From Candidatus Eiseniibacteriota bacterium (GTDB lineage: Bacteria; Eisenbacteria; RBG-16-71-46; JABDJR01; JAWXBZ01): a DNA stretch of 22,687 bases. The stretch covers positions 1 through 22,687 of the forward strand of contig JAWXBZ010000013.1 of assembly GCA_034440375.1 (NCBI GenBank). The letters run 5' to 3'. Below are positions 6,396-22,687 of this stretch, in pieces (positions within the stretch are counted from its first letter, which is position 1; each line of letters opens with the position of its first letter). The notes beneath the pieces are model-generated. The model made no database searches. It was not told the DNA's origin and saw nothing but the letters and a program-made list of their open reading frames with translations. Both the position numbers and the translations under genes were made by a program.

Positions 6396-7463
6396 CTATC
6401 TGTTGACCACACGCATACTTGTGTTCTCCGAACGGCCGTTGGGACCAGAGACGGGACCGGTTTCGACCCGGTCGAGGTCGGCGAAGAGCGCCGCGTCCGA
6501 CAATCCAGCGTACCTCTCGGTCATTCGCGATGTCGAGTGACCGAGCATCCGCTGAAGAGCGGCGAGACTTCCTCCCCGTTCCAGGTACCGGCAGGCAAAC
6601 GTGTGCCGAAGCTGGTGCCAGTGCCAATTCACCTTGTTGTCCTCCGGCATCCGGCCCGCGTTGCGATAGGCCAGCGTGCAGGGATTGACCATGCGGTAAG
6701 GCGACACGAAAACGCCCGAGGCGATCTTTCGGAGTTCCTCGATGACGCGTCCCGCCTCGGCCGTCAACGGCACCCGGCGCACCCGGCCCGACTTCGTTCC
6801 TTCGAGAACCAGGTGCAGTCGCGGCTCCTTGACGACGTGCCGCCACTGCAGCTCCCGAAGCTCTCCCCACCGGAGTCCGGTTTCGACGACCAGCCCGATA
6901 CAGAGTGCTTCCTTCGGACGTGCGTAATTGAAAATCTGCTCCATCTGCTCGTCGGCCAGGCGCCGCGGCGCGTGCTCGGCGATGCGCGGCATGATATCCC
7001 GCCGCCAGGGCACCGAGACGAGTTCGCCGGCATCGACCGCGTGGCGCAGAAGGCAGCGGACGTCGGACAAGATGTGATGCACTGTCTGAGGCTCCATGTT
7101 CCCATCCAACCGGGCCCGGAGAGCCCGGAGGTCGGCGTACGTCAGCCGGGCCAGCTCCACCGCCCCGATCACCGGCAGGATGTGCTGTTCGAGCCTCCGT
7201 TCCGTGAGCTTCACCCCCTTTGGATTCCGGCGCTGGTGGACCCACTCTTTCATCCAGCGCGTGGAAAAAGTCGAGACCGTTTCTGTTCTGGGCTCGTTCG
7301 CCTTCCGGTGCTCGAGCTCGATCGCATCGAGCGAGGCGGCAAGGCAATCCCTGGCGGTCTCCGAATCTCGTGTTCCCAGCGCGCGGCGGTACAGCTTCCC
7401 CCCGACAAACATCCGGGCGTAGTACCACCCACCGCGTCTAACCAGATTTCGTGGTCGTCGCAA
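6396..7463 (-). CDS. int: Tyrosine recombinase / phage-type integrase
   Basis: Catalytic motifs TGLRWGE (R), TKSG (K), HQLRH, LGHS and RYA (Y); N-terminal arm-binding-like 'RGGWYYAR'. TTG at 7463 has AAGGAG 7 nt upstream (ORF-track start is 7502). Confidence 0.95.
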   Translation of the reverse strand: MRRPRNLVRRGGWYYARMFVGGKLYRRALGTRDSETARDCLAASLDAIELEHRKANEPRTETVSTFSTRWMKEWVHQRRNPKGVKLTERRLEQHILPVIGAVELARLTYADLRALRARLDGNMEPQTVHHILSDVRCLLRHAVDAGELVSVPWRRDIMPRIAEHAPRRLADEQMEQIFNYARPKEALCIGLVVETGLRWGELRELQWRHVVKEPRLHLVLEGTKSGRVRRVPLTAEAGRVIEELRKIASGVFVSPYRMVNPCTLAYRNAGRMPEDNKVNWHWHQLRHTFACRYLERGGSLAALQRMLGHSTSRMTERYAGLSDAALFADLDRVETGPVSGPNGRSENTSMRVVNR

Positions 7464-7653
7464 GGCGCGTCTCCTTTCTGTTTCGCCTTGCCAACCATTC
7501 ATCCAACTCCGTACGCCTGAACCTTACCGTGGCCCCCGCCTTTAGGAAGGGAATTCGACGACGCCAGACCCACTGGTACACGGTGCGTGGCTTCACCCGG
7601 AGATAGTCGGCGGCCTCGGGAACAGTCAGGAGCGCTTCGGGCACTGCATTCAC
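7438..7653 (-). CDS. xis: Excisionase-like helix-turn-helix DNA-binding protein
   Basis: 'LLTVPEAADYLRVKPRTVYQWV...IPFLKAGATVRFRRTELDEWL' fits the HTH_17/Xis pattern. GTGA overlap with the upstream gene. Confidence 0.88.
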   Translation of the reverse strand: MNAVPEALLTVPEAADYLRVKPRTVYQWVWRRRIPFLKAGATVRFRRTELDEWLARRNRKETRLATTTKSG

Positions 7654-7958
7654 CTCCGCTGGTCGCCCACGAGCTGGCGGATCTGATCGATGATGGCCAC
7701 CTCGAACAGGTCGGCCGTCTCGCGATCAATCGGGTGATGGAGGGGGTGCGGCTTGCCGGTGGACGCGAGCTTCCGTGGATAGGTGAGAAACAGGCGACCG
7801 GACAATTCGTCGCGGCGGATCGCGATGTCGTTCAAGAGGACGCTGCCGTACCGGCAGGAGGCGTAGGCCACCAGGCCATCCGTGCCGTTCGGGACCGGGC
7901 GGATCCGGACTTCGCTGATTTCGTGAATTTTGTGAATGGTTTTGGAAATGTCAGACAT
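7650..7958 (-). CDS. SpoVG-like nucleic-acid-binding protein
   Basis: 'ISEVRIRPV...LVAYAS...LLNDIAIRR...LFLTYPRK...HPIDRETADLFEVAII' follows the SpoVG pattern. GGAGG RBS precedes ATG 7958. Confidence 0.75.
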   Translation of the reverse strand: MSDISKTIHKIHEISEVRIRPVPNGTDGLVAYASCRYGSVLLNDIAIRRDELSGRLFLTYPRKLASTGKPHPLHHPIDRETADLFEVAIIDQIRQLVGDQRR

Positions 7959-8098
7959 GATCGGTGACCTCCTGTGACGCCCCGACCGGGTCATTGAATG
8001 TGGGCGACTGGTTTTGTGGTTGCTCCGAACCGTGCACGAAATTCACAAAATCCCCATCCATGGCCGGCGCCTCCGAATTTCGTGAATTTTGTGAGTGG
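7911..8098. repeat. Iteron-like 9-bp-period repeats in direct and inverted arrays
   Basis: ATTTCGTGAATTTTGTGA is identical at 7918-7935 and 8077-8094; an inverted copy CACGAAATTCACAAAAT lies at 8035-8051. Confidence 0.8.
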
Positions 8099-9666
8099 AT
8101 GGCCGGGTTCACTTCGAACGAGGCGCTCGGCGGGCGCCCACGGCCGGATCGCTGACGCGCGGTTCGCGGGCGAATCAGCAGGTGCTCGACGAGGAGAACG
8201 AGTGGCGGGTCCATCTCAGCCGGCGCCCTGAACCGGGCTCGCGCCGCCTGGTAGAGCTCGTGCGTCGTGAAAGCTGCCGTGCCGGTTCGCCGGATCCAGG
8301 CCAGGATGTACCGCGCATCCCGTGCAATCGGATTGGCCGACATCATGTCGAAGGCGCTTCCGGCGTGGGCGCGGAGATAGTCCGCGAGTCGGAGGGCCCG
8401 CCGCATCTCCCCCTCACCGATCTGCTCGAACTGGCCCCCCTGGCGCAGGCCGGCCCGGTCCGCCAGGTGCAGCAGGCCGGCAAGCCGGACCAGGGTGCCC
8501 CCCAGCTTGTTCCCCCAGTCAGCAATACTCTCGAGCTCTCCGGACGGCCCGAGATGCTTCTCGATCGTGCCCTTGAATTCCACCAGGAGGGCGTAGGCTT
8601 TTCGATGAAGGTCGATCATGTCGGGTCTGATCTCCCCCGTCTCGTCCTTTTCCACCGGGATCCGGAGCAGTGCGGCAATCGCCTCTTCATAAGCCGCCCG
8701 GACTTGCTCCGGCACCGGAGGCGAATCAGCCAGCCGCTCGCCGACCAGACTCGTCGGAACGGACCAGAGGAACCTGGCCAAAAGGCCTCGACCCCGGAAC
8801 CCCTTCTTCTCCTGGAGGCCCGTGATGACGTCGGGCTGGATGGCCAGGCCGATCGTGATCGCCGGATTCCGGACCGACCCACCGGAACGGCTGATCCGAT
8901 CCGTCGAGATCGGGCTGCCGCTGTGCCCCTTCAGATAGATGTCGATGTTCGGAACGCCTTCCGAATAGCGGCCACCCATGAGCTCAAACGGCCCCCCCTC
9001 GTCCGACAGAATTCCGATCCGCCCGCCCTGCTGGCGCAGGACGACTTCCAGGGATTCGGCGGTCACGTCGTCGAGGATCATCCGAAGCTGGGCGGGCACA
9101 TAGAGGGCTGCCTGTTCGAGGACAGCCTCCTCAATCTCCTTCAGCAGCCTGACGTGCCGCTCCGCATCACCGGCCTTGGCCGCCTGTATCTTCAGATGGT
9201 CAATCCGCTTCGTAGCCACGTCATATCGAGCCGCCGCCGCCCGGATCTGCGGCTCCATGCGCCGCTGTTCCTCCGCCACGTACTGAGCCACCGGCCGGAT
9301 GGCCGCGGTGAACGCCGGACTCTTCGATTCCCCCGGCTTCAGCGCGACGGCCACATACAGGTTCAGCGGTTCATCCCAATCCGGGCGGACCTGCACCTTG
9401 AGCTTCTTCGCGCACGAGAGGGACAGGATGGCCAGGGCGAGCATCGCGGGCAGATCGACGGGACACTGCAGAGCCTCGGCGAGGGCGACCACCCAGTTCT
9501 TGAGCCAGGGGGGAAGGACCTCCGCCGGGAAGGCCGGCACGTTGGCTGTCTGTCCGAGCGGCAGCGGATTGCCCCAGGGTTCGCCCGATCCGTCTATCGG
9601 TTCAGCACCGGCGAAGGGGTCGGAAGGCAATGTGCCATCGCGGTGCCGGTCGTTGTCGTCCTTCAC
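7951..9666 (-). CDS. DUF3987 / YfjI-family protein (putative replication helicase-like)
   Basis: P-loop-like 'LKPGESKS', plus 'DVTAESL', 'LSDEG', 'DRISR', 'IQP' and 'GLLARFL'. GTG at 9666 has a GAGGAGG RBS and overlaps the upstream stop (GTGA). Confidence 0.85.
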   Translation of the reverse strand: MKDDNDRHRDGTLPSDPFAGAEPIDGSGEPWGNPLPLGQTANVPAFPAEVLPPWLKNWVVALAEALQCPVDLPAMLALAILSLSCAKKLKVQVRPDWDEPLNLYVAVALKPGESKSPAFTAAIRPVAQYVAEEQRRMEPQIRAAAARYDVATKRIDHLKIQAAKAGDAERHVRLLKEIEEAVLEQAALYVPAQLRMILDDVTAESLEVVLRQQGGRIGILSDEGGPFELMGGRYSEGVPNIDIYLKGHSGSPISTDRISRSGGSVRNPAITIGLAIQPDVITGLQEKKGFRGRGLLARFLWSVPTSLVGERLADSPPVPEQVRAAYEEAIAALLRIPVEKDETGEIRPDMIDLHRKAYALLVEFKGTIEKHLGPSGELESIADWGNKLGGTLVRLAGLLHLADRAGLRQGGQFEQIGEGEMRRALRLADYLRAHAGSAFDMMSANPIARDARYILAWIRRTGTAAFTTHELYQAARARFRAPAEMDPPLVLLVEHLLIRPRTARQRSGRGRPPSASFEVNPAIHSQNSRNSEAPAMDGDFVNFVHGSEQPQNQSPTFNDPVGASQEVTDHV

Positions 9667-10661
9667 CGGACCACCTCCTCGCTCGGCCGGCTGCGAAAGA
9701 CCTGGCAACGCCCGTGAAGGGTCGCGACGATCTGGTGTGCGTAACGCTCTCCCGGTTCGTCGTGGTGAGTTCGGATCACGACGCGGCATCCGTCCGGGAT
9801 CCGGTCGGCGATCTCCTGCGACCAAGCCCCGGCTTCAACACCGAAGCAGGCGGGGCCTTGAGCCTCGGCCTCGCGCTGGCGAGCCGCCCAGGTGAGCCAG
9901 TCGGGCTCGCCTTCAGAGACGACAGCCTCCCGCGGATCCCACCAGTCCGGAACGATTCCGGAGAGGAGCTGCGCGCCAACTGGGTCGGCCAGGACAAGCC
10001 CCTTCACCGAGAAACCGGCCGGGGCCAGAGATTTTGGCGTCGTGGCGGGGTCGGTGCAGCGAGCACGTAGCGAAACCGCTTGGCCGCCGTCGTCCCACAG
10101 TCGAAAGATGACCCGGTGGCCGGTCTCCATCCAGGAACCGCCCCGGCTGCACGCCCAGCGAGGCAGGCTGTGGCCCGAGCGAGGCGCCCGGGCGAGGTCC
10201 CACAGCTCCGTCCGTTCGATTATCAGATCTGCCTCGTCACCGAAGCGGCGACGAAACCACCTGGCGACCTCCGGATCCGAGCCGACCGGAAGCGAGGAGG
10301 ACCAGATGGCCTCGACCTCACCAGAAGGCGGCCGCTTGATGGCCTGATCGATCAGGGCTGAGAGATCGACCTTCGGTACATAGGTCTGGTCGCGGAAACG
10401 CCCGTTCGGTATGGCCCTCGGCGTCCGCTCGCCGCACCGAATCCCCCGCCGGATGTGCCCAAGGGCTTCGCGCTCCGGGAGTCCAGTCCCAGTGGCCGCG
10501 TCAAGCAGGAGACCTTCGGCCTCGGACTGTTCGATTTGACCCGCCCCGACGAATCCGCCAATCGACGCAGCGGCGCGAAAGACAGCGCAAGCACGACCGG
10601 ATGAGCTTCCGCGCAGGGCCCCGATCTCTGCGGCAACCGCCGCTCGGACGTAGGCCGTCAT
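9663..10661 (-). CDS. Primase-like protein: N-terminal PriCT-like helical region plus C-terminal Toprim-like domain
   Basis: 'VVSEGEPDWLT' and 'RVVIRTHHDEPGERYA' resemble Toprim motifs; the N-terminal 'GRACAVFRAAASIG...LPEREALGHIRRG' resembles primase C-terminal helices. Start chosen from the ATGA overlap. Confidence 0.65.
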   Translation of the reverse strand: MTAYVRAAVAAEIGALRGSSSGRACAVFRAAASIGGFVGAGQIEQSEAEGLLLDAATGTGLPEREALGHIRRGIRCGERTPRAIPNGRFRDQTYVPKVDLSALIDQAIKRPPSGEVEAIWSSSLPVGSDPEVARWFRRRFGDEADLIIERTELWDLARAPRSGHSLPRWACSRGGSWMETGHRVIFRLWDDGGQAVSLRARCTDPATTPKSLAPAGFSVKGLVLADPVGAQLLSGIVPDWWDPREAVVSEGEPDWLTWAARQREAEAQGPACFGVEAGAWSQEIADRIPDGCRVVIRTHHDEPGERYAHQIVATLHGRCQVFRSRPSEEVVR

Positions 10662-10896: not shown

Positions 10897-11089
10897 ACAT
10901 CTCCGGTCCCCGATCGCGTCTGAACCCCACTTGCGAAAGGGGGGCATCAGGCTCCGGCGGGGACACGATCCCCTACCCCCGTTGCTTACTTACCCGGGGA
11001 TGGGTTGGAACGTCGGAGCGGGAGCAGCGCTGCTTTCAACGTCTGGTGCACCGGCACTCCCCGGGAACGGAGGGTGTCTGGGGCAGGCT

Positions 11090-11132
11090 GGTTCCTTCCA
11101 GCGCGAGGCCCCTCGGGTGCCGGCAACCCCGC
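11090..11132 (+). other. Lambda cosQ/cosN-like motif
   Basis: GGTTCCT, then 22 nt, then GCCGGCAACCCCGC; lambda as recalled has GGGTCCT, 24 nt, GGCGGCGACCTCGC. Confidence 0.4.
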
Positions 11133-11164
11133 TATTTGTGTCGTCGGAGGCTTCCGAAACAAGT

Positions 11165-11208
11165 TAACACCCGTAACACCCGTTCCAGTGTTCCACTCGT
11201 TCCACGCG
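11165..11208 (+). repeat. Tandem ~9-bp repeats
   Basis: TAACACCCG TAACACCCG TTCCAGTG TTCCACTCG TTCCACGCG. Confidence 0.7.
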
Positions 11209-11361
11209 CGAAGGGCCGCGTCGGCAGCTCTTGATCGCCAGCGGCACAAAACCTTTCTGGTCGTCGAATGGGGCTTGTACAATGCAATTCAGCGACCCGA
11301 TGTCGAGCGTGGCCTTCCAACAGGTCGCTTCCGATACGAAACAGCAGGAGGTTGTGAACTC

Positions 11362-11796
11362 ATGACGCGTGATGGTCTGCAGTGGAAACGTGACTTTCCG
11401 ATGACAGAAGAAGTTGAGGATTTTTCGGGAAAGATCAGGCGCTTTCTAATTTCGTGCCACGAAGGCGCACTTGGATTCACGGTTCGCGCGGAGGAGAATG
11501 GCACCGAGGGCAACGGTTACCAGTTCGGGGTGTATAGCGAGACCAGCCCGTATGCTGCATTCGGTCGCCTTCGTGACAAGATGCGCCGGGCACTCGCCAC
11601 TCGTCATCTCAGCGGGTCCGCCGGCTCACCTCAGATGATGCATGACACTCTCCGGGGTCGGATTACCTCAGACGGTGATCGGGGAGTGCTCTTTGTGGTT
11701 GACGGCATCCCCCTCGAACTCGACAAATTCGCCGGCATGCTTGCCTCTCTCGAGGGATGGGAGTTCGAACTTCAGATCAAGAGCGCGCTCGAATGA
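11362..11796 (+). CDS. Hypothetical protein (144 aa)
   Basis: AGGAGG precedes ATG 11362; globular-looking sequence 'GYQFGV...LRGRI...VVDG...LEGWEFELQI'. The upstream ORF-track extension crosses repeats and is probably non-coding. Confidence 0.7.
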   Translation: MTRDGLQWKRDFPMTEEVEDFSGKIRRFLISCHEGALGFTVRAEENGTEGNGYQFGVYSETSPYAAFGRLRDKMRRALATRHLSGSAGSPQMMHDTLRGRITSDGDRGVLFVVDGIPLELDKFAGMLASLEGWEFELQIKSALE

Positions 11797-11851
11797 GGAG
11801 TGTCGCGCGCACCGACCCGGCGACGTTCGTCGTTCGCCGTCGCAGGGTCAT
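11777..11851 (-). pseudogene. abiEii: Truncated AbiEii toxin (first 24 codons only)
   Basis: ATGA-coupled to the abiEi stop; reads MTLRRRTTNVAGSVRATLLIRARS*, resembling the 'NxAASVRARLLNxAR' N-terminus of AbiEii toxins. Confidence 0.65.
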
Positions 11852-12435
11852 CCGACGGCCTCAAGGTACGGGCGGATCACCCGCGTCACGCGGTCAACCT
11901 CGGCGAATTGCCAGAGGGCATCGAGGTGCTTCGGATGGACCCGCCGGTACTCGCGCAGCGCCTCGACGGCCACGTCGGTACCGATCTTGTTGCGAAACTT
12001 GAAACAATCGGCGACGGTCTTTGCTGCGCTGAAGACACGTAGCCGCACGCCGCCAACGTCGTGCTCCGCCACCCCTTCGTTCAGAGCGGCGCCAGACAGG
12101 TAAACAAGACGAAGCGGCGGATGCTCAGTGCGCGGCCGCCACGCCTTCCGATCAATGGCCAGCCACACCTCGAAAGGGCTCTGCGTCGTCAGACCGTGGA
12201 ACCGAAGCGCTGACAGCAGGCACACAATACCCCCCGGGACGAGACGGGCCGCCTCCGCCAGATCGTTCCGTTCAGTGATCGGCGCTCCGGACTTTCGGTA
12301 GAGGCCACGCCCAACTCGCTCGATGACGCCCTGTTCGCGCAGGCGCCGGATCTCAGTTCGCGAGATCCCCGCACGCTCCAGGTCACGAGAGCGGGCAATC
12401 CCCGCCTTCCTGAGCACGGTCACGGCATGATCCAT
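11848..12435 (-). CDS. abiEi: Type IV TA antitoxin AbiEi (wHTH transcriptional regulator)
   Basis: 'GIARSRDL...IERVGRGLY', 'CLLSALRFHGLTTQ' and 'KTVADCFKFRNKIGTDVAVEAL'. ATG 12435 is the likely start. Confidence 0.9.
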   Translation of the reverse strand: MDHAVTVLRKAGIARSRDLERAGISRTEIRRLREQGVIERVGRGLYRKSGAPITERNDLAEAARLVPGGIVCLLSALRFHGLTTQSPFEVWLAIDRKAWRPRTEHPPLRLVYLSGAALNEGVAEHDVGGVRLRVFSAAKTVADCFKFRNKIGTDVAVEALREYRRVHPKHLDALWQFAEVDRVTRVIRPYLEAVG

Positions 12436-12443
12436 GGAAGCTT

Positions 12444-12493
12444 TTGTCACAAATCCTCGGCTTTCGTTTATAAGTGCCGAGATATTGTAACAA
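12444..12493. promoter_or_regulatory. Inverted-repeat operator candidate for AbiEi autoregulation
   Basis: TTGTCACAAATCCTCGGC...GCCGAGATATTGTAACAA (14/18) immediately upstream of abiEi; a further TTGTGACA near 12525. Confidence 0.6.
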
Positions 12494-12551
12494 GCAGTTA
12501 TCAGTGCGCAATAGCCAGATTGCCTTGTGACAGAAGGATTTTTGAGCGCAG

Positions 12552-13181
12552 TCAATCATCTGGCCCCCGATGCGCCGTCGCATCCTCGTCGACCCAGTCC
12601 TCCTCCTCCCACGACATCCCCTTTCGGCCCGGCACCTTCCGCGTCGGCCCCGGCTTGTACCACGGACAACTTTTCGGCCCGTAGCAGAAAGTTTCACGCC
12701 GGTATCGCCGCACCGAGGGATTCCAGTGGTCGATGATCATCTCCACGGCCATCTCGCATCCCCAGATGCACGCGGAGCATTTCGTGGAGTAGGTCGCGGC
12801 GGCAAGTCGCCGATGCCGCCGTTCCCGATAAACATCGAGGGCCGGCGGCACGCCCAAGAAAGGCGGCGCATGCCCGAGGCTCTCGCCCGCTCGACCGAGG
12901 ACCTTCAGCCCGCTTGCCTTGTAAATGTCGGCCGTCTCCACCCGCCTATCCTCGACACGCTCGCCGACGCCTGAAACACGGTCTCCGGAACGGAACTCGT
13001 GTTTCTCGTGCGCGGCCTTGCCGACCGCGACTGCAAACTCCCCCGCTTCTCCGGCGAGCTTCCCGCGGACCCGCAGAACGAAACCGAGGTACGTATGGGA
13101 GCTCTCGTCAAAGCTCCGGGTGAGCCGGATACGAGGCTGGACCGAAAGGATGTCACCATCCCAATTGAGCTTGCTGTTCAT
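12552..13181 (-). CDS. Cys-rich hypothetical protein (possible Zn-binding)
   Basis: 209 aa from ATG 13181; beta-rich N-terminal half, then CSACIWGC and FCYGPKSC, and an acidic tail. Confidence 0.75.
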   Translation of the reverse strand: MNSKLNWDGDILSVQPRIRLTRSFDESSHTYLGFVLRVRGKLAGEAGEFAVAVGKAAHEKHEFRSGDRVSGVGERVEDRRVETADIYKASGLKVLGRAGESLGHAPPFLGVPPALDVYRERRHRRLAAATYSTKCSACIWGCEMAVEMIIDHWNPSVRRYRRETFCYGPKSCPWYKPGPTRKVPGRKGMSWEEEDWVDEDATAHRGPDD

Positions 13182-13437
13182 GTGGATCTGATCCCTGCAC
13201 CCTCGCGTTAACGATTGCAGAAAGTACCCCCCAGCGGGCCTTTTTGAAATCAGTAGCGTCCGTGCATTCCCAACATGTGGAACCGCAGCTTCGACCCAGG
13301 AATACGCGTGGGGCGCCGCCAGGGCCCCAGGGCCCAAACTGGAGGCCATCCTGATAGACCTCTCCACCTCGGTGCCACCAATCCGCTAGCCCAGGGCCGT
13401 CCGCCAACCGGACAGAAACCGTCCGGCCAATTGACAT
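13153..13437 (-). CDS. Possible small hypothetical protein
   Basis: 94-aa ATG ORF that fills the gap and overlaps the next gene's start; no recognised motif. Confidence 0.25.
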   Translation of the reverse strand: MSIGRTVSVRLADGPGLADWWHRGGEVYQDGLQFGPWGPGGAPRVFLGRSCGSTCWECTDATDFKKARWGVLSAIVNARVQGSDPHEQQAQLGW

Positions 13438-13551
13438 CCTAACCTACTGTAAAAGATGCACTTGCCGTCTGAATTGCCTTCCATTCGCCCGCCCAAAGCT
13501 CGTCACTGTCCATGCGGCGAGCATGGTGCCCGGCGCGGATAGGAGGCCAGC

Positions 13552-13764
13552 ATGCAAATGACTCGGACCAACCCGGAACCCCTCGACGAATTCGTTAAGA
13601 GCCTCACCGAAATCGGGACCGTCCTGGAAGCCCTCAAGGATGCCACCGACGAGCACTTCGATTTGGCGCCGGAAGAAATCACCTGGGCCAACGTAGGCGA
13701 CGCCAAGCGCACCCTTCACGGTCTCCAAGAGATGCTCGACGTCATTCGTGGCGAGGTGAAATGA
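13552..13764 (+). CDS. Small prophage-type hypothetical protein
   Basis: AGGAGG RBS; 'LDEF...DEHF...PEEITWANVG' resembles small helical proteins I associate with prophages. Confidence 0.75.
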   Translation: MQMTRTNPEPLDEFVKSLTEIGTVLEALKDATDEHFDLAPEEITWANVGDAKRTLHGLQEMLDVIRGEVK

Positions 13765-13994
13765 CCATGGCCGCCACCGCACCATATTTCGGATTTCGGG
13801 AACACCAGGTCTTCTGGTCAGAGAGAGGCAGCATCGTCTGCGCCTGTTGCCACATCCCCTACCCCGGGTCGGATACCTGGGTGTGGGAACGCTGGGAAGA
13901 GATTACGCCCGCGACCATGGCGGAAATCGACCGTGAGGGCTGGCACGTGGCGTGCGAAGGGTGTGGCAAAGAGCCGCGCCGGATCGTGCGCTGA
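13761..13994 (+). CDS. Small putative zinc-finger protein
   Basis: ATGA overlap with the upstream gene; CACC and CEGC motifs. Confidence 0.65.
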   Translation: MTMAATAPYFGFREHQVFWSERGSIVCACCHIPYPGSDTWVWERWEEITPATMAEIDREGWHVACEGCGKEPRRIVR

Positions 13995-14016
13995 ATCCAA
14001 CCGAGAGGAACCAGTC

Positions 14017-14331
14017 AGGAGCAAGCCGAAGAGCACCACCAAGAAGGCCGCCCCTAAGGCGGCGGCCGACAGCCCCAAGGAATCGGTGGTCGTGACGTCG
14101 GCCAGCAAGCAGGCGACGAAGCACGCGGCCAAGGAGCCTCGTGAGAAGGCGCCGAAGGACGACATGATGGTCTTCGCGTTCCGCCTGTCCAAGGAGGAGA
14201 GCGCGGCGATCCACAAGGCCGCCGGCCCAGGCAAAGCGTCGAAGTTCGCCCGGACCCTCCTGGTCGCCGCCGCCCGGAACGACGAAGCGGAGGTGAAGGC
14301 GATCCTGAAGGCGGTCCAGACCAACGCGTAG
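14017..14331 (+). CDS. Lys/Ala-rich protein with C-terminal ribbon-helix-helix-like domain; start codon possibly mutated
   Basis: KKAAPK-rich N-terminus, then 'VFAFRLSKEESAAIHKAA...ASKFARTLLVAAA'. GAGAGGA is followed 7 nt later by AGG rather than ATG. Confidence 0.55.
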   Translation, partial: RSKPKSTTKKAAPKAAADSPKESVVVTSASKQATKHAAKEPREKAPKDDMMVFAFRLSKEESAAIHKAAGPGKASKFARTLLVAAARNDEAEVKAILKAVQTNA

Positions 14332-14355
14332 CGCACACCGATTCACGATCCCGTC

Positions 14356-14383
14356 GACCTCTCGAAATCATCGAGGGGTCTTC
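14356..14383 (+). terminator. Hairpin between convergent genes
   Basis: GACCTCTCGA-aatca-TCGAGGGGTC followed by TTC; the U-tract is weak. Confidence 0.45.
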
Positions 14384-14426
14384 GGCCTTCAGGCCACAAG
14401 CCCGCCCGAAGTGGTGATCATTCTCG

Positions 14427-15392
14427 TCATGGACCCGCCGCCTTGTGCTTCCGGGCATTCTGAACCTTCCAGAGCAGGGGCGGAAACTGAGCGACCCGAT
14501 CGGCGAGCAGGGCGTCATCCGGGAACAGAAGTTCCGGCCGAAGTTCGCCGAGTTGCAGGCGATCAACAAACTCTCTCTCGGCATCATCAAGATCCATCAA
14601 GTGGCCGACAGCGGCCCAAGCCTGCTAGACAAGTTCCGATGCCGAAGCGGGCCCTCTTCCAGCCAACATCGACACCAGCTCCATGTCGACCTGAGCTTGA
14701 TCGACTCGATTGAGGCGCTCCCGTTTGTACGCATGAAGAGGGTGGTCCAGCATGCCAGAGAATGCCACGAAGAGCCTCTTGAATTGGTGGGAATGCCAGA
14801 ACTGGATTGCGATCTTCGGCAATCGTGTGGCGTCATAGAGGTCCCTCGGTCGGCACCGACTCATCAAAGCACAGAGTTTTCCGGCGCAGATGTCCTCCAG
14901 TCCCGCCAGAGTCAGCTCGGGCCGAGGGAATTCACCTGGCTGCCACATGGGCTCCTTGCGAGTCGATCCGAATCCGATGCGGTGGACGAAATTCAGATCG
15001 ATCTCGATCCGGTCCCGGATCCCTGCCAGGTTGACGTAGCTGAAATAGATTTTGCGGCCGGCATGATCGTCCCCAGAGCGTTGGAGAAGATACCCTTGTG
15101 ATCGACCGATATCCTCCACAACCTTTTCGATCCGCGGACGCTCCCGCAACATCCCATCCCGGTCCGGGGCGCCGACATAATTGAAATCGAGGTCGACGGA
15201 CAGCCGCGGTGGCGGTCCGAAGAAGAGATTCAACGCGGTTCCACCCTTCAGTACCAGCGTCGACCCGAGCAGCGGATGTGGACCGATCTGCGAAGCGATC
15301 CCGCCCAGGCGAATTACCTTCTCGAGCGATTCCGCTCGAAAGCCAGTCTCCACGCTCAATGTGCGGATGGTCTCAGGGTCCAGGTTCTCCAC
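14427..15392 (-). pseudogene. abiEii: AbiEii nucleotidyltransferase toxin interrupted by an in-frame TAG at 14625-14627
   Basis: 'LKGGTALNL...RLSVDLDF', 'GKLCAL' and 'RDLYD'. The same frame continues 65 codons past the TAG (QAWAAV...LRPELLF...PPLLWKVQNARKH) to TGA at 14427. Confidence 0.85.
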
Positions 15393-16233
15393 TCTCCATT
15401 CCTCCGAGCAGATGTCGTGGAACAACGAGATTCCAGCGACTCACGTAAGCCCCTCCGACCCGCCCAGGCTCGAGGTAGGTCGGCGACTTCGGACGATGTC
15501 GGGCGATCTCCTCGAGGATTGAATCAGGCAGATAAAGCGTCGATTGGTTTCTTTCCAGGAACCAGCCGAGAGCGGCCCACAGGCGAGGGCTGTCGTAAAG
15601 TGCGAGAATCTCACGCAGATCGTTGAGGTTGAGTGTGACAAACCCCATGGCCGACTCCACAAGTTCATCCACCCCCCCCACCCACCTCAAGCTCCTGAAT
15701 CCTTCCACCAGGGTCCTCTCGGGGCTGGTGACGGTCAAGGATCTGCCGGCGCGCGTGATCGTCCTGGTCCATCGTCGCAGCGGATCTTCAGTCTGGAACG
15801 CGGCGCGGCGGTCCTTCCTCATGACCGGAGGGTGAACGAGAAACACGATGCGATTGGACCCAAGCCGCACAGGCGTCCGTCGCCGGTCGGTGTACACAGT
15901 GAAGACGTGCCAGACCGAATGAGCCTGCCCCTGAAGCTCCAGCGCGGAGTGATGACAAAACACAGCATCCGATCGAGCAGCCGCCGCCACCAGGTAGGGA
16001 TCCGGTTGATACCGTTTTGCCGCCGTGCCGAGCGGAACCGTTGCGAAAACCCCGCGCGCCACCGACTTCACACGCCCCTCCCGGACAAAGTACTTGAGCC
16101 GGGCTCTTGCCCTGGCCAGGGCGTCGGTCCCGCTCAGATAGTCTGCAAACTCGTGGGCCGAGAAGACAGAGTTCTTCTCGAGGAAATTCAGACTCCTTGA
16201 TGTCGCCACTTGTTGTTCAGCGCTATTTGGCAT
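15373..16233 (-). CDS. abiEi: Type IV TA antitoxin AbiEi-family protein
   Basis: 'VKSVARGVF', 'CHHSALELQG', 'VTSPERTLVE' and 'RWNLVVP'; overlaps the toxin start. Confidence 0.87.
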   Translation of the reverse strand: MPNSAEQQVATSRSLNFLEKNSVFSAHEFADYLSGTDALARARARLKYFVREGRVKSVARGVFATVPLGTAAKRYQPDPYLVAAAARSDAVFCHHSALELQGQAHSVWHVFTVYTDRRRTPVRLGSNRIVFLVHPPVMRKDRRAAFQTEDPLRRWTRTITRAGRSLTVTSPERTLVEGFRSLRWVGGVDELVESAMGFVTLNLNDLREILALYDSPRLWAALGWFLERNQSTLYLPDSILEEIARHRPKSPTYLEPGRVGGAYVSRWNLVVPRHLLGGMESGEPGP

Positions 16234-16466
16234 AGTTTTTTTACCTTTTATCAATCACAACAAGAAGGCGTCTCGACAACTAAAAGCTGAGGCAGCAGTG
16301 AAGCTTAGAGATCAACGCTAGTCAGGTATTTTCGTCTACAACCTGTAAAGAATAAATAAATTCACTGTTACAAAGCAAGATCGCAAGTAAAATATACTGC
16401 ACCCTTTACGGCTTCGCAAAGCTAAGCCATTACTAGACAATGCCTTACGGTTCCGGACCATTGGGT

Positions 16467-19400
16467 TCACTCTGCGCGTCCCAGCACCTCGATCAGCTCC
16501 GCAACTATCCGCAACTGCCCCTCGTCTGCGCCGCTCAGAACGATGGGCGCGAAGTCAGGGTTCACGGATTTTAGGGTGATCGCGCTGTGGCGCCAAGAAT
16601 CGTCCTGCCCCTTCTTCTCACTCTCGTAGCGCTTGACGGTATAACGCTGGCCGGTCTCCGGGTCGACAGCATCCACCAATTGAACAAGCACCGTCTTGCC
16701 ATGTCGCGTGCCCGTCACGGGCGCGGCAAAGAGGCAGTAGGAGCTATCCTGAATGATTGGTTCCATCGACTTTCCGACGACCTGGGCAACGAACATGAGT
16801 GGACGCAGCCGGTTGCGCGACTCGACTGTGACCCACTGGAAGCCGTCGTCCTCCACATTCTGAGGGTCGCTGAAGGCACCGGCGGCGGCCTTGAGCGGAA
16901 TAAGGGGGACGCAGGAAATGTAGCGCTCCTCAGGTTTGGGATCGACAATGCGGAGCCGTGCCGGCAAAGCCAGGGGGCCCGCTCCCCCTTCAGCATCGCC
17001 AGTCCCCTGTCGTAGTCGCCGATACGCCTCCGACGCCATCCACGCCGTCACCACCTTTTGGAAGGGTGCGTCATTCATGAAGCGCACGAAGATCTCCTCG
17101 TTCTGATCCATGCGCTCAACGAAGAGCTTCTCGAGCAGGTTCCTGAAGACGAGCTCGAACTTGTCGCCCGGATTCACCACGGCTGCTTGTCGCAGATCGC
17201 CGTCGGCCATGGCCGCCTCGACAATCTGGTCGAAGAAGAGCTGGTCGGCCTGGTTGAAGTCGGTTCCGAAGCGCTCGTTCACAACGTCTATGAGCTGGGA
17301 TAGTGGCACAGGCTGCGCGCGCACCAGGCCGCTGCCCACCTCGGTAGGTCCATCGAGGGGCCGTGCCTCACCGTCCTGGAGCGAGATGGACCCCTCGCTG
17401 ATCTTCTGCAGGCGGTAGTACTCAAGCCGTACCTCGTCATCAAACTGGTATGCCGCTCCGCTCTTGCGGCGTGGCAGCTTCGCCGCAAGATGCCGGAGGA
17501 ACACGTACAGCCGCTCCAGATCCGAGTCCTGATATGGGATTACCTGGCTCAGAAACCCATAGAGGTTCAGGAGCGCCTGCACCTTCCCCCGCCAGAGTTC
17601 CGCCTCCTCCTCGTTATCCTTCTGGCGAACGGTGAACCGTGACACCGCCGGATCGAGGGCGGCGTTCATCGCCTGGTGATCCATGGCGCTCTGGCGCTGC
17701 TTCGGCTTGAAGTAGACCGCACTGAATCGCTCTACCTCCTCGTCCAGGTAGATCCCAGAGGCGTCCAGCTCACCCTTTATCGCATACATGCGGGCAGGGT
17801 CGACTTCTTCGCCCATCTCGGCGCCTTCGTAGTAGGTCTTAAACGCCTCCCGAATCTCTTCCCGATCGTTCACGAAATCAAGGATAAACGTGTCTTCCTT
17901 GAGTGGATGAATGCGATTCAGTCGCGACAATGTCTGTACGGCTTGGATGCCGCCAAGCCGCTTATCCACGAACATCGTGTGCAGAAGAGGCTGATCGAAC
18001 CCGGTCTGATACTTCTCTGCCACGAGCAGGACCTGATACTCCTGCGTTGCGAATTTCTCGGGCAGCTCCTTCTCGGAGATGCCGTTGTTCATGCCCGGTT
18101 CGGTATAGGTGACGCCGGCCAGCTTGTCGTCCACCACCGTTCCCGAAAAAGCAACAAGAGACTTGATGGCGTAGCCCTTCTCCTGGATGTAGCGATCAAA
18201 GCTCTGTTTGTACCGGACAGCTTCCAGACGCGAACCCGTCACCACCATCGCCTTGGCCCTCCCGCCGATCTTGTGGCGGGTGACGGCCTGGAAGTGCTCT
18301 ACCATTACCTCAGTCTTTTGCGCGATGTTGTGCGGGTGCAGCTTCATAAAGCGCGCCAGCGCTTGAGCGGCCTTCTTGCGCTCAACGTTCGGATCGTCAT
18401 CGCAAGCCTTGAGCAGTTTGAAGTAGGTCGCGTACGTGGTGTAGTACTTCAGTACGTCGAGGATGAACTCCTCTTCGATCGCCTGCCGCATGGTGTAGCG
18501 GTGCGTCGGCTGCCCATCGCGGCCAAATACGGCGAGCGTCTTGTGCTTGGGCGTCGCGGTGAAGGCGAAGAAACTCAGATTTGCCTGTTTACCGCGCTTG
18601 GCCATGCTACGGAAGAGTTCTTCCATGTCTTCCCGGCCTTCTTCGGTCGCACGCTTCCTGGCTTCGTCCCGCAGCCCCTCACCGCCAAGCACTTCCTTGA
18701 GGTCGGTCGCCGTCTCGCCGCCCTGCGAACTGTGGGCCTCGTCTATGATGACGGCGCACCGCCGAGTGGCCAGCGTGCCGGTGCCGCTCTCGCCGCGCTC
18801 CTCGGCGAGCTTGAGCAGCTGGCGCGAGACGAACGGGAACTTCTGCAGCGTCGTGATGATCACCGGCACAGCATTCTCGAGCGCCTCAGCGAGCTGTCGC
18901 GAACTCTCGTCTATCCGCTGCACGACGCCACGCTTGTGCTCGAACTGGTAGATCGTGTCCTGAAGCTGCTGGTCGAGCACCACGCGGTCGGTCACCACGA
19001 TCACGCTGTCGAAGACGCGCTGGTTGGCTGCATCGTGCAGGGACGCCAGCCGATGCGTCAACCAGCCGATGGTGTTGCTCTTGCCACTTCCGGCCGAGTG
19101 CTCGACGAGGTAGTTGCGCCCCACGCCCTCGCTACGCGCGGCATCCACCAACTGACGCACCGCCTGAAGCTGGTGGTAGCGGGGAAAGATCATCGACTCG
19201 GTCTTGACCTTGCGGCCTTGGTCGTCGCGCTTTTCGTCAATCTGCAGGTGGATGAATCGAGCGAAAAGGTCGAGCAGGCTGTCCCTCTGCAAGACCTCTT
19301 CCCACAGGTAGGCCGTGCGGTAGGTCCGCCCGGCCGGATCAGGTGGATTCCCGGCGCCGCCCTCGCAGCCCTTGTTGAAGGGGAGGAAGTGAGTAGCCGT

Positions 19401-20018
19401 ACCCGCGAGGCGAGTGGTCATCAGCACCGACTCGGTATCCACCGCGAAGTGCACCAGCGTGCGGCGCTTGAACTCGAAGATCGGCTCGCGCGGGTCGCGG
19501 TCCTGCTTGTATTGCCGGCGCGCATCCTCCACCCGCTGGCCCGTGAGCGGGTTCTTCAACTCCACCGTGGCGATGGGGATCCCGTTCAAGCTCAGCGTCA
19601 CATCGAGCGACTTCTCGCAGCGCGGCGAGAAGTGAAGCTGCCGCGTCAGCCCCAGGCGGTTGGCGGCGTAGCGCGCTTCCAGCTCCGGATTCAGCTCGTG
19701 CGCCGCCTTGAAGAACGCCGCGTGAAGCGTGCGCCCGTAACACTTGAAGCCGTGGCGCAACGTCGCGAGCGAGCCGTTCTGGTCCATCCACTTGCACAGG
19801 TCGCCGAGGATCTGCTCGCCGGTCTTCTCCCCGTGCAGCGCCTCGAGCTTGGCCCACTCCTTCGGTTGCGTCTCGCGGATGAAGGCGAGCACCGTCTCGG
19901 GGAAGATCGCGCGCTCGCGGTCGAAGCCCTCGCGGGCGACCGGCACGTAGCCGTTCTGAAGGAGGTGCGCCTCGATGACCGTCTCGAAGGCGGCTTCGGA
20001 GTGGCGACCCTGGCTCAT
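16467..20018 (-). CDS. hsdR: Type I restriction subunit R with C-terminal S24/LexA-like domain
   Basis: Nuclease D...ELKN, Walker [19 protein letters not shown] and QTLSRLNR. The last ~165 aa contain AAG, GKSMEP and TVKRY. ATGA overlap at the start. Confidence 0.95.
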
Positions 20019-20665
20019 GCAGCCATCTCTCCGATCTTCTGCCCCAGCCACCACACGGCAACCGGACCATAGGGCGCCATCTCCCCGTAGCCGGCAATTT
20101 GCCTGTCGCGTTCCCGTACGTATCGGTCCCTGGGCACGGGGCCACCGATCCGTGCCTTCTCACCCTTCCACCACGCGAGAACAGCATCGAGAACGCTCTT
20201 CCGGTTGTTCTTGAGCAGCGGAAGATTGAGGTTCAGGACGTTATCCAGTTGGCCATCGAACACGGCGTCATGCGCGCGCATCGAGCCATCCAGCTCGTAC
20301 CGCACGCGGGTCTCGATGTGGTGCGCCGCGTTCGCCGGGTTCCACTGCAGATCGCTGTCACCCTTCCGCGTGTCGCAGTGTTGCAAGTGAGTCGGCTGAC
20401 CGTTCCCGCCAAGGCAGGTGCCGAGCAGGTTCCCGTAGCTGAGCTGGTCATTCGGGTGGCGAGACTGACACAGCCAATGCTCGATCTTCATGGTTGTCGG
20501 TCCGTTGCGAACCCGTCCCATGCAGTAGCAGCACAGTCCACGTTGCTCGGTCACGAGCGCATGCCGAAGCTCGTCCTTCCGGCCGTAGTTCTCATAGTCG
20601 CAGTGCGGCGTCTGGCGATGCGCCGTCAGGCTCGCCGGTTCAGTGCCCTTGGCGATCTGCCTCAC
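20015..20665 (-). CDS. ptuB: HNH endonuclease, TIGR02646 / PtuB-like
   Basis: 'EQRGLCCYC', 'IEH', 'YGNLLGTC', 'HCDTRKG' and 'LNLN'. GTGA overlap with the ATPase stop. Confidence 0.85.
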
Positions 20666-21915
20666 TGCTCGCTCTCCATGAAGTCGAGGAGGGTTCTGAT
20701 GCGGGTGACCTCCGGGTCATCCTCTCCGAGCTTGCCGACGAGCGTGGCCAGAAGGTCACGAGCGCTCTGGTACCGCTGCTTGCCCACCTCCTGCGAGATC
20801 TGCGAGAGCAGCGCGTTGACCTCCTCGGTGCGCGGGTCGGCGTCCATGATCTCTTCGAGCACGCGGCTCGAGTCCACGCCAAATGAGTGTGTCGGCGAGT
20901 AGACCTGGCCGTTCGCGATGATCTGAATCCGGTCGTGCTCGACCTCGCCAATGACCTGCGGCGAATGTGTCGTGGCGATGAACTGGCAGCGCGGGAAGGC
21001 CGCGCTCAGATTGCGAACGATCTGGCGCTGCCACTTCGGGTGCAGGTGCAAGTCGATCTCGTCGATCAGCACCACCGCTTCCGCCTCGGCGGCCGGGTCG
21101 GCCATTTCTGGGTTGGCCTGTGCCAGCCGACGCGTCAGGTCGAGCACGAGGGCCAGCGTGCCGCGCTCGCCGTCCGACAACTGCCGCACGGCGACAGTGG
21201 TGCTGCCGCGATCGATCAGCAGTTTCGGGCGCGCGTCGCCGTCCACACGGAGATGGGCGTAACCGGGGAGAAATCGCGCTACCGCGTCCTCGAAGGCGGC
21301 GAGCACTCGACCAGCCGAAACACGTTCCGCCTTCAGAGCTTCCTGGACCCGCATCCACGCCGCGAACTCGCCAAGCCTAAGTTCGCGATTTGCGAACGCA
21401 TCCGCGAAAGCCGCGGCGATCCCGCCGGCGGCCACGTTCTTCCCAGGCGCCCGCTCCGACGGCACTGCCCGATTGGTCGAGAACAGCACCGCCAACGGCC
21501 GACCGCCGGGCTCGCTCCCCGTCACCCGCGCGGGCACGTTGCCCAGGAACGTGACCTTCTCGGGGGTGTCATGCACCTGCTCCCGCGGCATGCCCGCCTT
21601 CCTCTCCTGCGGAGCACTCGATTCCCGCGGCTTGTGGATCAGGTAGCGATACTCCGACCCGCCGATCTGCACGCCACACTCGATGCTCAGCGCGTCCGCG
21701 CCAACCCGGATGTCTTCAACAGTGAACGATTGAACCGGCGCGCGCAGCTTGTTCGCCTGCTTGGCGAAGGCCGAGAGACACACGCGAAGCGCATCGATCA
21801 TGCTGGTCTTGCCGACGCCGTTGACACCGACAATCAGGTTGAAGCCCACCTGAAAGCGGAACTCGGCGGTCTCGATCGCACGGAGGTTGGCGAGCTTGAG
21901 CGCGGTGACTCTCAT
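20662..21915 (-). CDS. ptuA: ABC-type (AAA_15/21) ATPase, PtuA-like
   Basis: Walker A GVNGVGKT, signature LSDGE, Walker B/D-loop LIDEIDLHLHP, H-loop TTHSP. ATG 21915 overlaps the hsdS stop (ATGA). Confidence 0.88.
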   Translation of the reverse strand: MRVTALKLANLRAIETAEFRFQVGFNLIVGVNGVGKTSMIDALRVCLSAFAKQANKLRAPVQSFTVEDIRVGADALSIECGVQIGGSEYRYLIHKPRESSAPQERKAGMPREQVHDTPEKVTFLGNVPARVTGSEPGGRPLAVLFSTNRAVPSERAPGKNVAAGGIAAAFADAFANRELRLGEFAAWMRVQEALKAERVSAGRVLAAFEDAVARFLPGYAHLRVDGDARPKLLIDRGSTTVAVRQLSDGERGTLALVLDLTRRLAQANPEMADPAAEAEAVVLIDEIDLHLHPKWQRQIVRNLSAAFPRCQFIATTHSPQVIGEVEHDRIQIIANGQVYSPTHSFGVDSSRVLEEIMDADPRTEEVNALLSQISQEVGKQRYQSARDLLATLVGKLGEDDPEVTRIRTLLDFMESEQ

Positions 21916-22687
21916 GCCGCGTGCTCCACGTCTATCTGACCCGTCACGGCCGCGGCGATCAGCGCGGCGCGGCGCTCCTTCAGAAGCCCAACAGTGCGTA
22001 CGGTCTTGGACTTGATCTCGTCGAAGTTGGTCATCTGAACATCCAGTGCCGACAGAATCGCAGCTTGTTCCCCTATCGGTGGTACAGCCAACCAAAGTTC
22101 GTTGATTGCACCCATGGCAATGTTTGGCTGTGTGCCCGCAGACCACGTCTGTCGGACCTGGTCTTGAACGACATCGGCCCGAAGGCAGACCTCCAAATAC
22201 GCCGGTAGCGCCACATGCGGGTCTGCGCGAATGACCGCCAACGGGGACCAGATGGAGAACTCGTGGTCCACCAAGACTCTCGCAAGTTTTCCCGTGGTAG
22301 CGCCTGACTTGCAGAACAAGATGTCATCTCGTTGAGGCCGCGTCTTTCTGCAATAGGCCGCGTGAAGCTGTGGCGTGATGAAGCCTCGTCGCCGCTCGAA
22401 GTCGATGGCATCCTCTTGAATGGCTTCGGCAGAGATGAACTCTATGCCGTCTGATACAAACTCGGGCGTTTCGTGGGGGCCATCTGTTATTGGAATCGCG
22501 ACGAGCCGCTTAAGGCGCATTGCCTCCCAATGCGCCGGAATCTCGCCGAGCCAGGGGATGCCGGAGTCGCGGAGGGGGGCACGGGGGCCGAGGCCGCGGG
22601 TGACGGCGCGGGTGATGAGCGCCCGGCGCTTCTCGGCCAACAGCCCGAGCACCCGCTCCTTCGCCGCCACCAGCGCATCCAGCCGCG
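21912..22687 (-). CDS. hsdS: Type I restriction specificity subunit S (5' partial)
   Basis: Central conserved region 'EKRRALITRAVTRGL...DSGIPWLGEIPAHW', second TRD, and C-terminal 'PPIGEQ...LKERRAALIAAAVTGQID'. Confidence 0.95.
   Translation of the reverse strand, partial: RLDALVAAKERVLGLLAEKRRALITRAVTRGLGPRAPLRDSGIPWLGEIPAHWEAMRLKRLVAIPITDGPHETPEFVSDGIEFISAEAIQEDAIDFERRRGFITPQLHAAYCRKTRPQRDDILFCKSGATTGKLARVLVDHEFSIWSPLAVIRADPHVALPAYLEVCLRADVVQDQVRQTWSAGTQPNIAMGAINELWLAVPPIGEQAAILSALDVQMTNFDEIKSKTVRTVGLLKERRAALIAAAVTGQIDVEHAA

Follow-up and report, generated by a model that had tools for sequence, protein, structure and literature searches.

A LexA-type self-cleavage module on the HsdR subunit of a type I restriction system: a candidate for built-in restriction alleviation

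Restriction enzymes need to be silenced when the chromosome carries unprotected sites, for example once DNA has been repaired or when the system has just entered a new cell. The solutions described so far rely on host proteases and have been elucidated for only a handful of species. Passages in two published accounts describe how ClpXP proteolysis of the EcoKI HsdR subunit prevents self-restriction (PMC12707154, PMC11109961), and part of a preprint reports the removal of HsdR by Lon-like proteases in Pseudomonas aeruginosa (10.1101/2024.10.21.619520). The other described proteins closest to the case presented here are the S24 self-cleavers LexA, UmuD and lambda cI, which respond to RecA filaments on single-stranded DNA (ssDNA). 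We analysed a stretch of 22,687 nucleotides (the window), which is one whole contig (JAWXBZ010000013.1) of the 264-contig draft genome GCA_034440375.1 of a Candidatus Eiseniibacteriota bacterium, and in which the gene for the type I restriction subunit HsdR runs on in frame into a C-terminal tail of the S24 (LexA) peptidase type. For this HsdR-S24 fusion we propose, by analogy, a trigger like that of LexA and a purpose like that of ClpXP-dependent restriction alleviation. The fusion is real and widespread, and apparently undescribed; its mechanism is plausible, and we infer the whole of it.

An S24 module behind the HsdR core

The fusion gene occupies positions 16467-20054 on the minus strand, as does every part of it described below, and forms one open frame of 1195 codons from its first codon, GTG at 20054, to the stop codon at 16469-16467. 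The start is probably Met13 (ATG 20018-20016, giving 1183 residues), because this ATG overlaps the stop codon of the preceding ptuB gene as ATGA and yields a protein equal in length to its relatives. The core, from Met13 to Arg1015 (17010-20018), comprises a PD-(D/E)xK nuclease, a superfamily 2 (SF2) motor and a helical C-terminal domain. Pfam places HSDR_N (PF04313) at residues 130-218, SWI2_SNF2/ResIII (PF18766/PF04851) at residues 291-542, of which SWI2_SNF2 takes up 294-542, with the GSGKS and DEAH motifs present, and HsdR domain 3 (T1R_D3-like, PF22679) at residues 662-727. PADLOC assigns the product to the type I restriction endonucleases (REase_I, E 3e-33). The NCBIfam hsdR model TIGR00348 scores 196 bits, under its cut-off of 284.55, from which we take the family to be a divergent one; judged by its HSDR_N nuclease, SF2 motor and HsdR domain 3, the N-terminal part is an HsdR subunit.

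An earlier note on this DNA had proposed that a LexA/S24-type autoprotease domain follows the normal end of HsdR, and the present analysis bears this out. A flexible, Gly/Ala-rich linker (about residues 1016-1029, 16968-17009), modelled with low confidence and poorly conserved among relatives, leads into the self-cleavage module proper (about residues 1030-1195, 16470-16967), whose own lead-in, RLRIVxPKPxERYxxCVPL, is conserved across 36 tailed HsdR sequences. A scan for Peptidase_S24 (PF00717), the check that had been suggested, matched residues 1051-1186 with 25.8 bits (E 9e-6), where the gathering score is 23.3, and a six-frame search of the genome with the same model recovered the tail at 30.2 bits (E 8e-7). 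The genome encodes a LexA of its own (211 residues, contig 54), to which the tail family (alignment A1, 66 sequences) was aligned by hhalign with a probability of 95.5% (E 1.5e-8); identity between tail and LexA is 31% over 114 aligned columns.

In the hhalign comparison KAAA/GAF of the tail falls on R-IAA/GT of the genome's LexA, GKSME on GESMI, and YTVKRY on ATVKRF. The predicted scissile bond, Ala1058-Gly1059 within KAAA/GAF, is thereby aligned with the Ala-Gly of LexA and lies at 16883-16878; the predicted nucleophile, Ser1096 of GKSMEP, aligned with the Ser of GESM, at 16769-16767; and the predicted general base, Lys1141 of YTVKRY, aligned with the Lys of TVKRF, at 16634-16632. The earlier note had placed these residues at about 16880, 16768 and 16633, which holds, and cleavage site, Ser and Lys are all intact. 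A MAFFT alignment offsets the Ala-Gly of the tail from that of LexA by one column, owing to an extra residue that the tail has between a conserved Pro-Leu and the Ala-Gly.

The predicted scissile Ala-Gly lies in the same chain as the Ser and upstream of it, as S24 self-cleavers need, at a spacing of 38 residues in the tail and 35 in the genome's own LexA. From Ser to Lys the distance is 45 residues in the tail versus 37 in that LexA, whose spacings are those of the E. coli protein (E. coli numbering from the PDB titles G85D, S119A and K156A). The tail carries two insertions relative to LexA, one of 8 residues in the hairpin before the Lys strand and one of about 8 after it.

The residues that cleavage would require are strongly conserved. 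G-x-S-M is invariant in alignment A1, and P2, P1, P1', Ser and Lys are each at least 95% conserved among the 36 tailed HsdR sequences. Across the wider family, counted over 150 representatives, the P1/P1' column is gapped in 20; among the other 130, P1 is Ala in 124 and Cys in 3, and P1' is Gly in 124. Of the 142 representatives not gapped at the nucleophile column 139 have Ser there, of the 144 not gapped at the general-base column 138 have Lys, and of the 124 that cover every one of the four positions 110 retain Ala/Cys-Gly, Ser and Lys together. This conservation argues that the module has retained catalysis and is not a mere scaffold. P3 to P1 are mostly Ala-Ala-Ala in the family, which is the LexA-like xAA/G type of site.

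An AlphaFold2 model of the last 196 residues (mean pLDDT 85.2, pTM 0.80) consists of about 30 linker residues at pLDDT 47-58 followed by a confident beta domain. Foldseek matched the model to 33 chains at E ≤0.001 (best E 7e-6), those listed being LexA, cI or UmuD. VIA-align gave Z of 10.1-11.9 to these three proteins (rmsd 2.8-4.3 over 97-126 residues), with an alignment that covers model residues 47-196 (73-200 on E. coli LexA) and includes the cleavage-site region; signal peptidases, of the sister family S26, came next at Z 5.6-6.8. By DSSP, model residues 55-61 (LKAAAGA) are helical, and the cleavable conformation is not displayed. A homodimer prediction for two 196-residue tails with A1 returned 0.00 against a mark of 0.42, which speaks neither for nor against dimerisation. 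As modelled, the tail has the fold of the LexA C-terminal domain, and it belongs to the S24 family by every sequence and fold criterion that we applied.

The fusion resembles LexA in fold (Z up to 11.9), in its aligned Ala-Gly, Ser and Lys, in its xAA/G site and in the order of N-terminal effector, linker and C-terminal S24 domain. Unlike in LexA, the part N-terminal to the tail is a nuclease-motor of about 1000 residues with no winged-helix DNA-binding domain, and the tail itself, with its two insertions and longer Ser-to-Lys spacing, forms a separate subfamily that a single-sequence search does not link to LexA. Because the N-terminal 1015 residues consist of HsdR domains and include no DNA-binding domain, HsdR-S24 is not a repressor of the LexA/cI type; of the 89 members of the tail subfamily that were scanned, no more than 4 have a helix-turn-helix (HTH). 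UmuD and lambda cI share with the tail both fold and dyad (Z 10.1-11.7 against 8gmt and 8gmu, chains whose structures were determined on RecA filaments). The cleavage sites of cI and UmuD are VQA/G or VQC/G, unlike the xAA/G of the tail, and UmuD sheds a short N-terminal peptide and becomes active, whereas HsdR-S24 would shed its whole S24 core.

In its proposed purpose, the removal of HsdR when the chromosome is endangered, the fusion would be like the ClpXP-dependent alleviation of EcoKI and the Lon-like alleviation of P. aeruginosa, as these are presented in parts of PMC12707154 and 10.1101/2024.10.21.619520. It would differ from both in that protease and site would sit in HsdR itself, with RecA* (the RecA-ssDNA filament) as the signal and no recognition by a host protease. 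No S24 domain on a restriction enzyme was found described in full-text searches of an incomplete library, where a domain table in a supplement could be missed. The main text of a 2025 restriction-modification review (PMC12707154) contains none of the terms S24, LexA, self-cleav and autoprote, and a term look-up in the YprA/ARMADA preprint returned no S24 domain on a restriction enzyme.

Recurrence among HsdR relatives and on other defence enzymes

In a species-level genome collection, relatives of this HsdR are encoded in at least 591 stretches, of which the best 80 (L004 to L083) served for comparison. The tail is present in 40 of the 80 loci: in frame in 38, a count that takes in L078 and also L054, only part of whose tail keeps to the frame; in the remaining two (L037 and L044) it follows a stop codon, in a different frame. 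It is absent in 39, whose HsdR ends 6-35 residues after the equivalent of residue 1010 (...RRLR), so that the tail does begin past the normal HsdR end, as had been claimed; L032 ends at a contig edge, which leaves its tail state unscorable. Decay, a split gene or assembly indel errors may lie behind the out-of-frame tails of L037, L044 and L054.

The tail region also matches 1618 protein clusters (90% identity, E ≤0.001) with lengths of 657-2092 residues. The best 120 of these all carry PF22679, all but five carry a precomputed PF00717, and 103 are longer than 1100 residues. The fusion recurs in 38 independent assemblies, complete chromosomes among them. A chimera or a singleton, either of which would have undone the earlier note's proposal, is refuted in practice by this recurrence in 40 of the 80 best loci and 1618 clusters.

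Among the best 80, the tailed loci fall under at least 12 phylum labels, with core identities of 77-94%, a spread from which we deduce extensive horizontal transfer; the HsdR family overall likewise carries at least 12 phylum labels, at 71-94% identity. All but one of the 40 tailed loci (39/40) are labelled as metagenome-assembled genomes, and the untailed loci include cultured Sphingomonadales and Rhizobiales, a Planctomycetales isolate and Anabaena, with several cultured type strains among them. This near-confinement of the tail to uncultured bacteria in the loci examined, a bias of sampling, may explain why the fusion went unnoticed.

A quick maximum-likelihood tree of the HsdR core was built with tail columns excluded (77 rows; the untailed L051, L055, L082 and L083, with a broken or short frame, were left out). 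Tail state changes 10 times on this tree with L032 treated as unknown and 11 times otherwise, against a mean of 25.8 for shuffled labels, and well-supported branches force at least four gains or losses. The untailed L021, L042 and L035 nest among tailed HsdR genes, which suggests that the tail is a facultative appendage; the cores of untailed L021 and L083 are 91% identical to that of the window. All 39 comparisons of tailed genes with the window show lower identity in the tail than in the core (median 66% versus 86%). Pairwise tail and core distances correlate (r 0.57, slope 1.8, 630 pairs), from which it follows that the tail has largely been inherited with its own core and evolves faster. 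Untailed sisters share with the tailed genes the same core, the hsdM-hsdS-(cargo)-hsdR layout and the frequent insertion of ptuAB, but have no S24 sequence, and the locus family gives a natural tailed/untailed contrast within one HsdR family. In L036, a Vicinamibacterales chromosome, a second copy of the tail (16124-16594; 61% identical to the window tail) occurs some 3 kb downstream from the tailed hsdR and presumably belongs to another enzyme.

The module is not restricted to this HsdR family but occurs on many further classes of restriction and defence enzyme, a breadth that the earlier note had not noticed. A phmmer search with the 196-residue tail, run against 1.84 billion representatives, gave 1767 proteins at E ≤0.001, 135 of them at E ≤1e-30, and 89 of the best 150 were scanned with Pfam (the 61 dropped rows were mostly shorter than 230 residues and fragment-like). 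The partners in these 89 were Type ISP enzymes (10), Schlafen-group-3 (SLFN-type) helicases (8), HsdR of two families, the SWI2_SNF2 type and the T1RH-like_C type (6), MZB/DEAD helicases (5), PLD nucleases (2), Schlafen AlbA_2 proteins (2), other restriction-type proteins (9; McrBC, LlaJI, MmeI-like, RE_endonuc, HNH with or without a methyltransferase, N6_Mtase and ResIII) and HTH repressors (4), and 43 had no second domain at E ≤1e-4. Always C-terminal and behind a linker, the module is joined to at least eight kinds of partner in 42 of the 89 scanned representatives; the sole property common to these kinds is that they act on DNA in defence.

The nearest relatives of the window tail are those of Type ISP enzymes, at 73% identity. 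On a domain-only tree (123 rows, 44 labelled) that is weakly supported, with 9 of 120 branches starred, the partner classes are intermingled, with 20-21 label changes against a minimum of 8 and a shuffled mean of 30.2. Within Eisenbacteria the module occurs in 8 of 206 species genomes, the window's included, in frames of 507-2006 residues except for one fragment. We regard it as an even call whether the tail is a portable, RecA*-gated proteolytic switch common to DNA-targeting immune enzymes of type I, ISP, IIL-like, IV, PLD, MZB and Schlafen type. If it is, it would constitute a protein-level counterpart of the LexA regulon that links bacterial immunity to the DNA-damage signal, and restriction systems would police their own autoimmunity in any host they enter.

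A plasmid collection yielded a single match, in Halomonas sp. PA16-9 (NZ_CP040452.1; L094, 5974-8444), where the partner is of another kind and the S24 part does not share its frame. There a Schlafen-group-3 helicase open reading frame (ORF) of 686 amino acids (aa) is overlapped, out of frame, by a 159-aa S24 ORF that has the Ala-Gly, GESM and TVK motifs and is 39% identical to the window tail by tblastn. Halomonas sp. PA16-9 is a cultured strain and could be a culturable entry point to the family if the frameshift is real or lends itself to checking.

Proposed built-in restriction alleviation and its alternatives

Our leading reading, which we hold tentatively and at a little short of an even chance, is that HsdR, on stimulation by RecA*, cuts off its own tail and is thereby inactivated or destabilised, which would amount to built-in restriction alleviation. 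The suggestion in the earlier note that RecA* sets off the cleavage and that restriction is tuned by it is thus a plausible one. The protein is an apparently functional HsdR that carries a portable LexA-type module after a flexible linker. RecA* would form on DNA breakage or stalled replication, and would also arise when the enzyme attacks unmethylated sites in the host chromosome. The module would dock on RecA* and cut its own chain at Ala1058-Gly1059, as LexA does, dropping an S24 core of about 137 residues and leaving an HsdR that ends in Leu-Lys-Ala-Ala-Ala. Restriction could then be switched off in either of two ways, through the loss of a tail-mediated pairing of enzymes or through the new Ala-Ala C-terminus acting as a degradation tag. 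The LexA 1-84 fragment, which ends in Val-Ala-Ala, is a ClpXP substrate.

An off-switch is favoured because the module is portable among unrelated partners, which calls for an effect that does not depend on the partner. A generic effect, such as lost pairing or a new C-terminus, fits the intermingling of partners better than would a specific inhibitory contact. Alleviation of this kind would need only the universal RecA signal and would suit a restriction system that moves between phyla; an HsdR family found under at least 12 phylum labels would benefit from a safety device that does not depend on the host. Shutting HsdR off by proteolysis to avoid self-restriction is, besides, an established need, which ClpXP serves for EcoKI and Lon-like proteases serve in P. 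aeruginosa. The genome encodes RecA, LexA, ClpX and ClpP, and its RecA carries the L2-loop Phe (GVMFGNPETT). In LexA, according to part of a preprint, six residues form a pocket for RecA Phe203 (10.1101/2023.10.30.564768). By hhalign their counterparts in the tail are Ile, Ala, Phe, Ala, Leu and Tyr, all of them non-polar, a mapping that is compatible with RecA docking and not diagnostic of it.

Should this reading be correct, a self-contained LexA-like fuse would be a new general answer to the silencing problem and would explain how promiscuously transferred systems become established. The RecA* signal would then reach beyond gene regulation to the direct control of an immune effector, and the module could serve engineering as a damage-responsive protein switch.

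Several points weigh against it. The pocket residues also belong to the hydrophobic core, which makes their conservation weak evidence for docking. Formation of the RecA complex is, according to part of the same preprint, impeded by steric bulk on the N-terminal side of LexA (10.1101/2023.10.30.564768), and caution is called for here, where the N-terminal partner of more than 1000 residues is far bulkier than the LexA DNA-binding domain, though the linker is long; the two insertions in the tail could likewise alter docking in the RecA groove. The match to classical S24 domains is modest, at 25.8 bits against a cut-off of 23.3. In a single-sequence phmmer search of the tail against PDB sequences no S24 chain was found, the one match being spurious (E 1.2), and a family profile returned LexA, cI or UmuD as 22 of its 25 PDB matches, but weakly, with a best E of 0.003. 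The tail is dispensable for the enzyme, as 39 of the 80 close HsdR relatives do without it. Cleavage, trigger and outcome are steps that we infer from sequence and analogy for every member of the tail family; the direction of the switch, off and not on, is a matter of argument, the cleavage of UmuD being an activating one; and the degron idea is drawn by analogy with cleaved LexA and from the specificity of E. coli ClpX.

The opposite direction, in which the tail would hold the enzyme inactive or paired and cleavage on RecA* would arm restriction, as UmuD is converted to UmuD', seems to us unlikely. The intact cleavage machinery suits it, as do the structures of UmuD and cI on RecA filaments among the fold matches of the tail model, and an infection-triggered on-switch would be sensible for the many partners that are abortive-infection-like or modification-dependent. 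However, autoinhibition needs specific contacts with at least eight unrelated architectures, and this module moves between partners on a linker modelled with low confidence. The untailed sisters L021 and L083, with cores up to 91% identical, presumably work without arming, and to arm a nuclease while host DNA is broken would aggravate self-damage.

We also give a low probability to a role independent of any signal, in which the S24 domain would be a dimerisation or assembly handle, or a slow, constitutive self-cleavage timer of HsdR lifetime, with no part for RecA. The C-terminal domains of LexA and cI are dimerisation domains, and dimers and an octamer appear in the PDB titles of the fold matches. 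Pairing could matter because cutting by Type I and Type ISP enzymes follows the meeting of two motors, and S24 proteins self-cleave without RecA too, at high pH. Nevertheless, dimerisation alone needs no near-universal retention of Ala-Gly, Ser and Lys, and the characterised S24 self-cleavers that best match the tail model are all RecA*-stimulated.

A trans-acting or decoy role is improbable: the tail might cleave another protein (for example a phage or host repressor of the S24 type), recruit the enzyme to RecA-coated DNA without cleavage, or be a target or decoy for anti-restriction. An arms race or adaptation to a partner could account for the divergence of the tail at about 1.8 times the rate of the core, but this divergence may just reflect weaker constraint. 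An Ala-Gly that is conserved in cis and spaced from the Ser as in LexA suggests self-cleavage, and no conserved partner gene was seen beside the tailed loci, few of which were examined in detail. Lastly, an assembly chimera, or two genes misread as one, might be suspected in a 264-contig draft and from the tails that are out of frame in L037, L044 and partly in L054, and can be set aside with near certainty given the single uninterrupted frame in the window and the occurrence of the fusion in 38 independent assemblies and, among the best 120 matches, in 103 proteins longer than 1100 residues.

The Septu cargo and the surrounding defence island

Three minus-strand genes precede hsdR in the window. 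The first is the 3' part of hsdS, cut by the contig end (21912-22685; PADLOC Specificity_I, E 8e-66). It is followed by ptuA, for a Septu ABC-type ATPase (20662-21915; start taken at ATG 21915; PADLOC PtuA, E 6e-115, with an alignment that begins at ORF residue 78), and ptuB, for a Septu HNH nuclease (20015-20665; PADLOC PtuB, E 4e-67). The NCBIfam PtuB model matches the ptuB product with E 6e-26 at 91.5 bits, under its 150-bit cut-off. As annotated, the adjoining ATPase and HNH genes are a Septu (PtuAB) pair; their PADLOC matches are strong, and the pair is a matter separate from the S24 question.

Each junction is an overlap of 4 bases (ATGA 21915-21912, GTGA 20665-20662 and ATGA 20018-20015), for which reason hsdS, ptuA, ptuB and hsdR are probably translationally coupled. 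The Septu pair would thereby be coupled inside a type I restriction operon (20015-22685). A simple scan found no intrinsic terminator 3' of hsdR. No hsdM lies on the contig and none was found for this system in a search of the assembly, the sole match being a 46-position N6_Mtase on contig 88; the gene order in relatives is hsdM-hsdS-cargo-hsdR, and L004 and L006 have both hsdM and hsdS upstream.

The earlier note had tied the tail to the co-encoded PtuAB effector, a part of its reading that finds no support. With ptuAB scored as present when both genes were full-length by tblastn between hsdS and hsdR, the pair was counted in 10 of 38 scorable tailed loci, one of them that of the window, versus 13 of 32 scorable untailed loci (Fisher p 0.31). 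Phylogenetically independent pairs on the HsdR tree show no trend towards an association, and PtuA and PtuB are separate genes; we reject the proposed link. In the relatives the gap between hsdS and hsdR is a general and variable cargo slot: that of L004 holds a Dam-like methyltransferase, two unknowns and a Schlafen/HATPase_c_4/Fic-like_C protein, and many relatives have other PtuA-like ATPases in their loci without PtuB.

Further defence genes lie downstream of hsdR. An AbiEi/AbiEii pair occupies 15373-16254 and 14625-15425, and a second, different AbiEi lies at 11848-12555. The start of this second gene is overlapped by an ORF of 271 aa (12552-13367) that matched no family and may encode a divergent AbiEii-type partner. 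Three ORFs at 13444-14590 gave no matches, and a plus-strand ORF of 263 aa inside the island (11005-11796) combines DUF7686 with DUF7713. No tRNA gene was found in the window, including beside the island integrase. Seen from the contig end, the defence genes are followed by a DUF3987 protein (7951-9825) and this tyrosine integrase (6396-7502), and past these come housekeeping-type genes (a cyclophilin and a subtilase); with this arrangement the restriction, Septu and AbiE cluster looks like the cargo of an integrative element.

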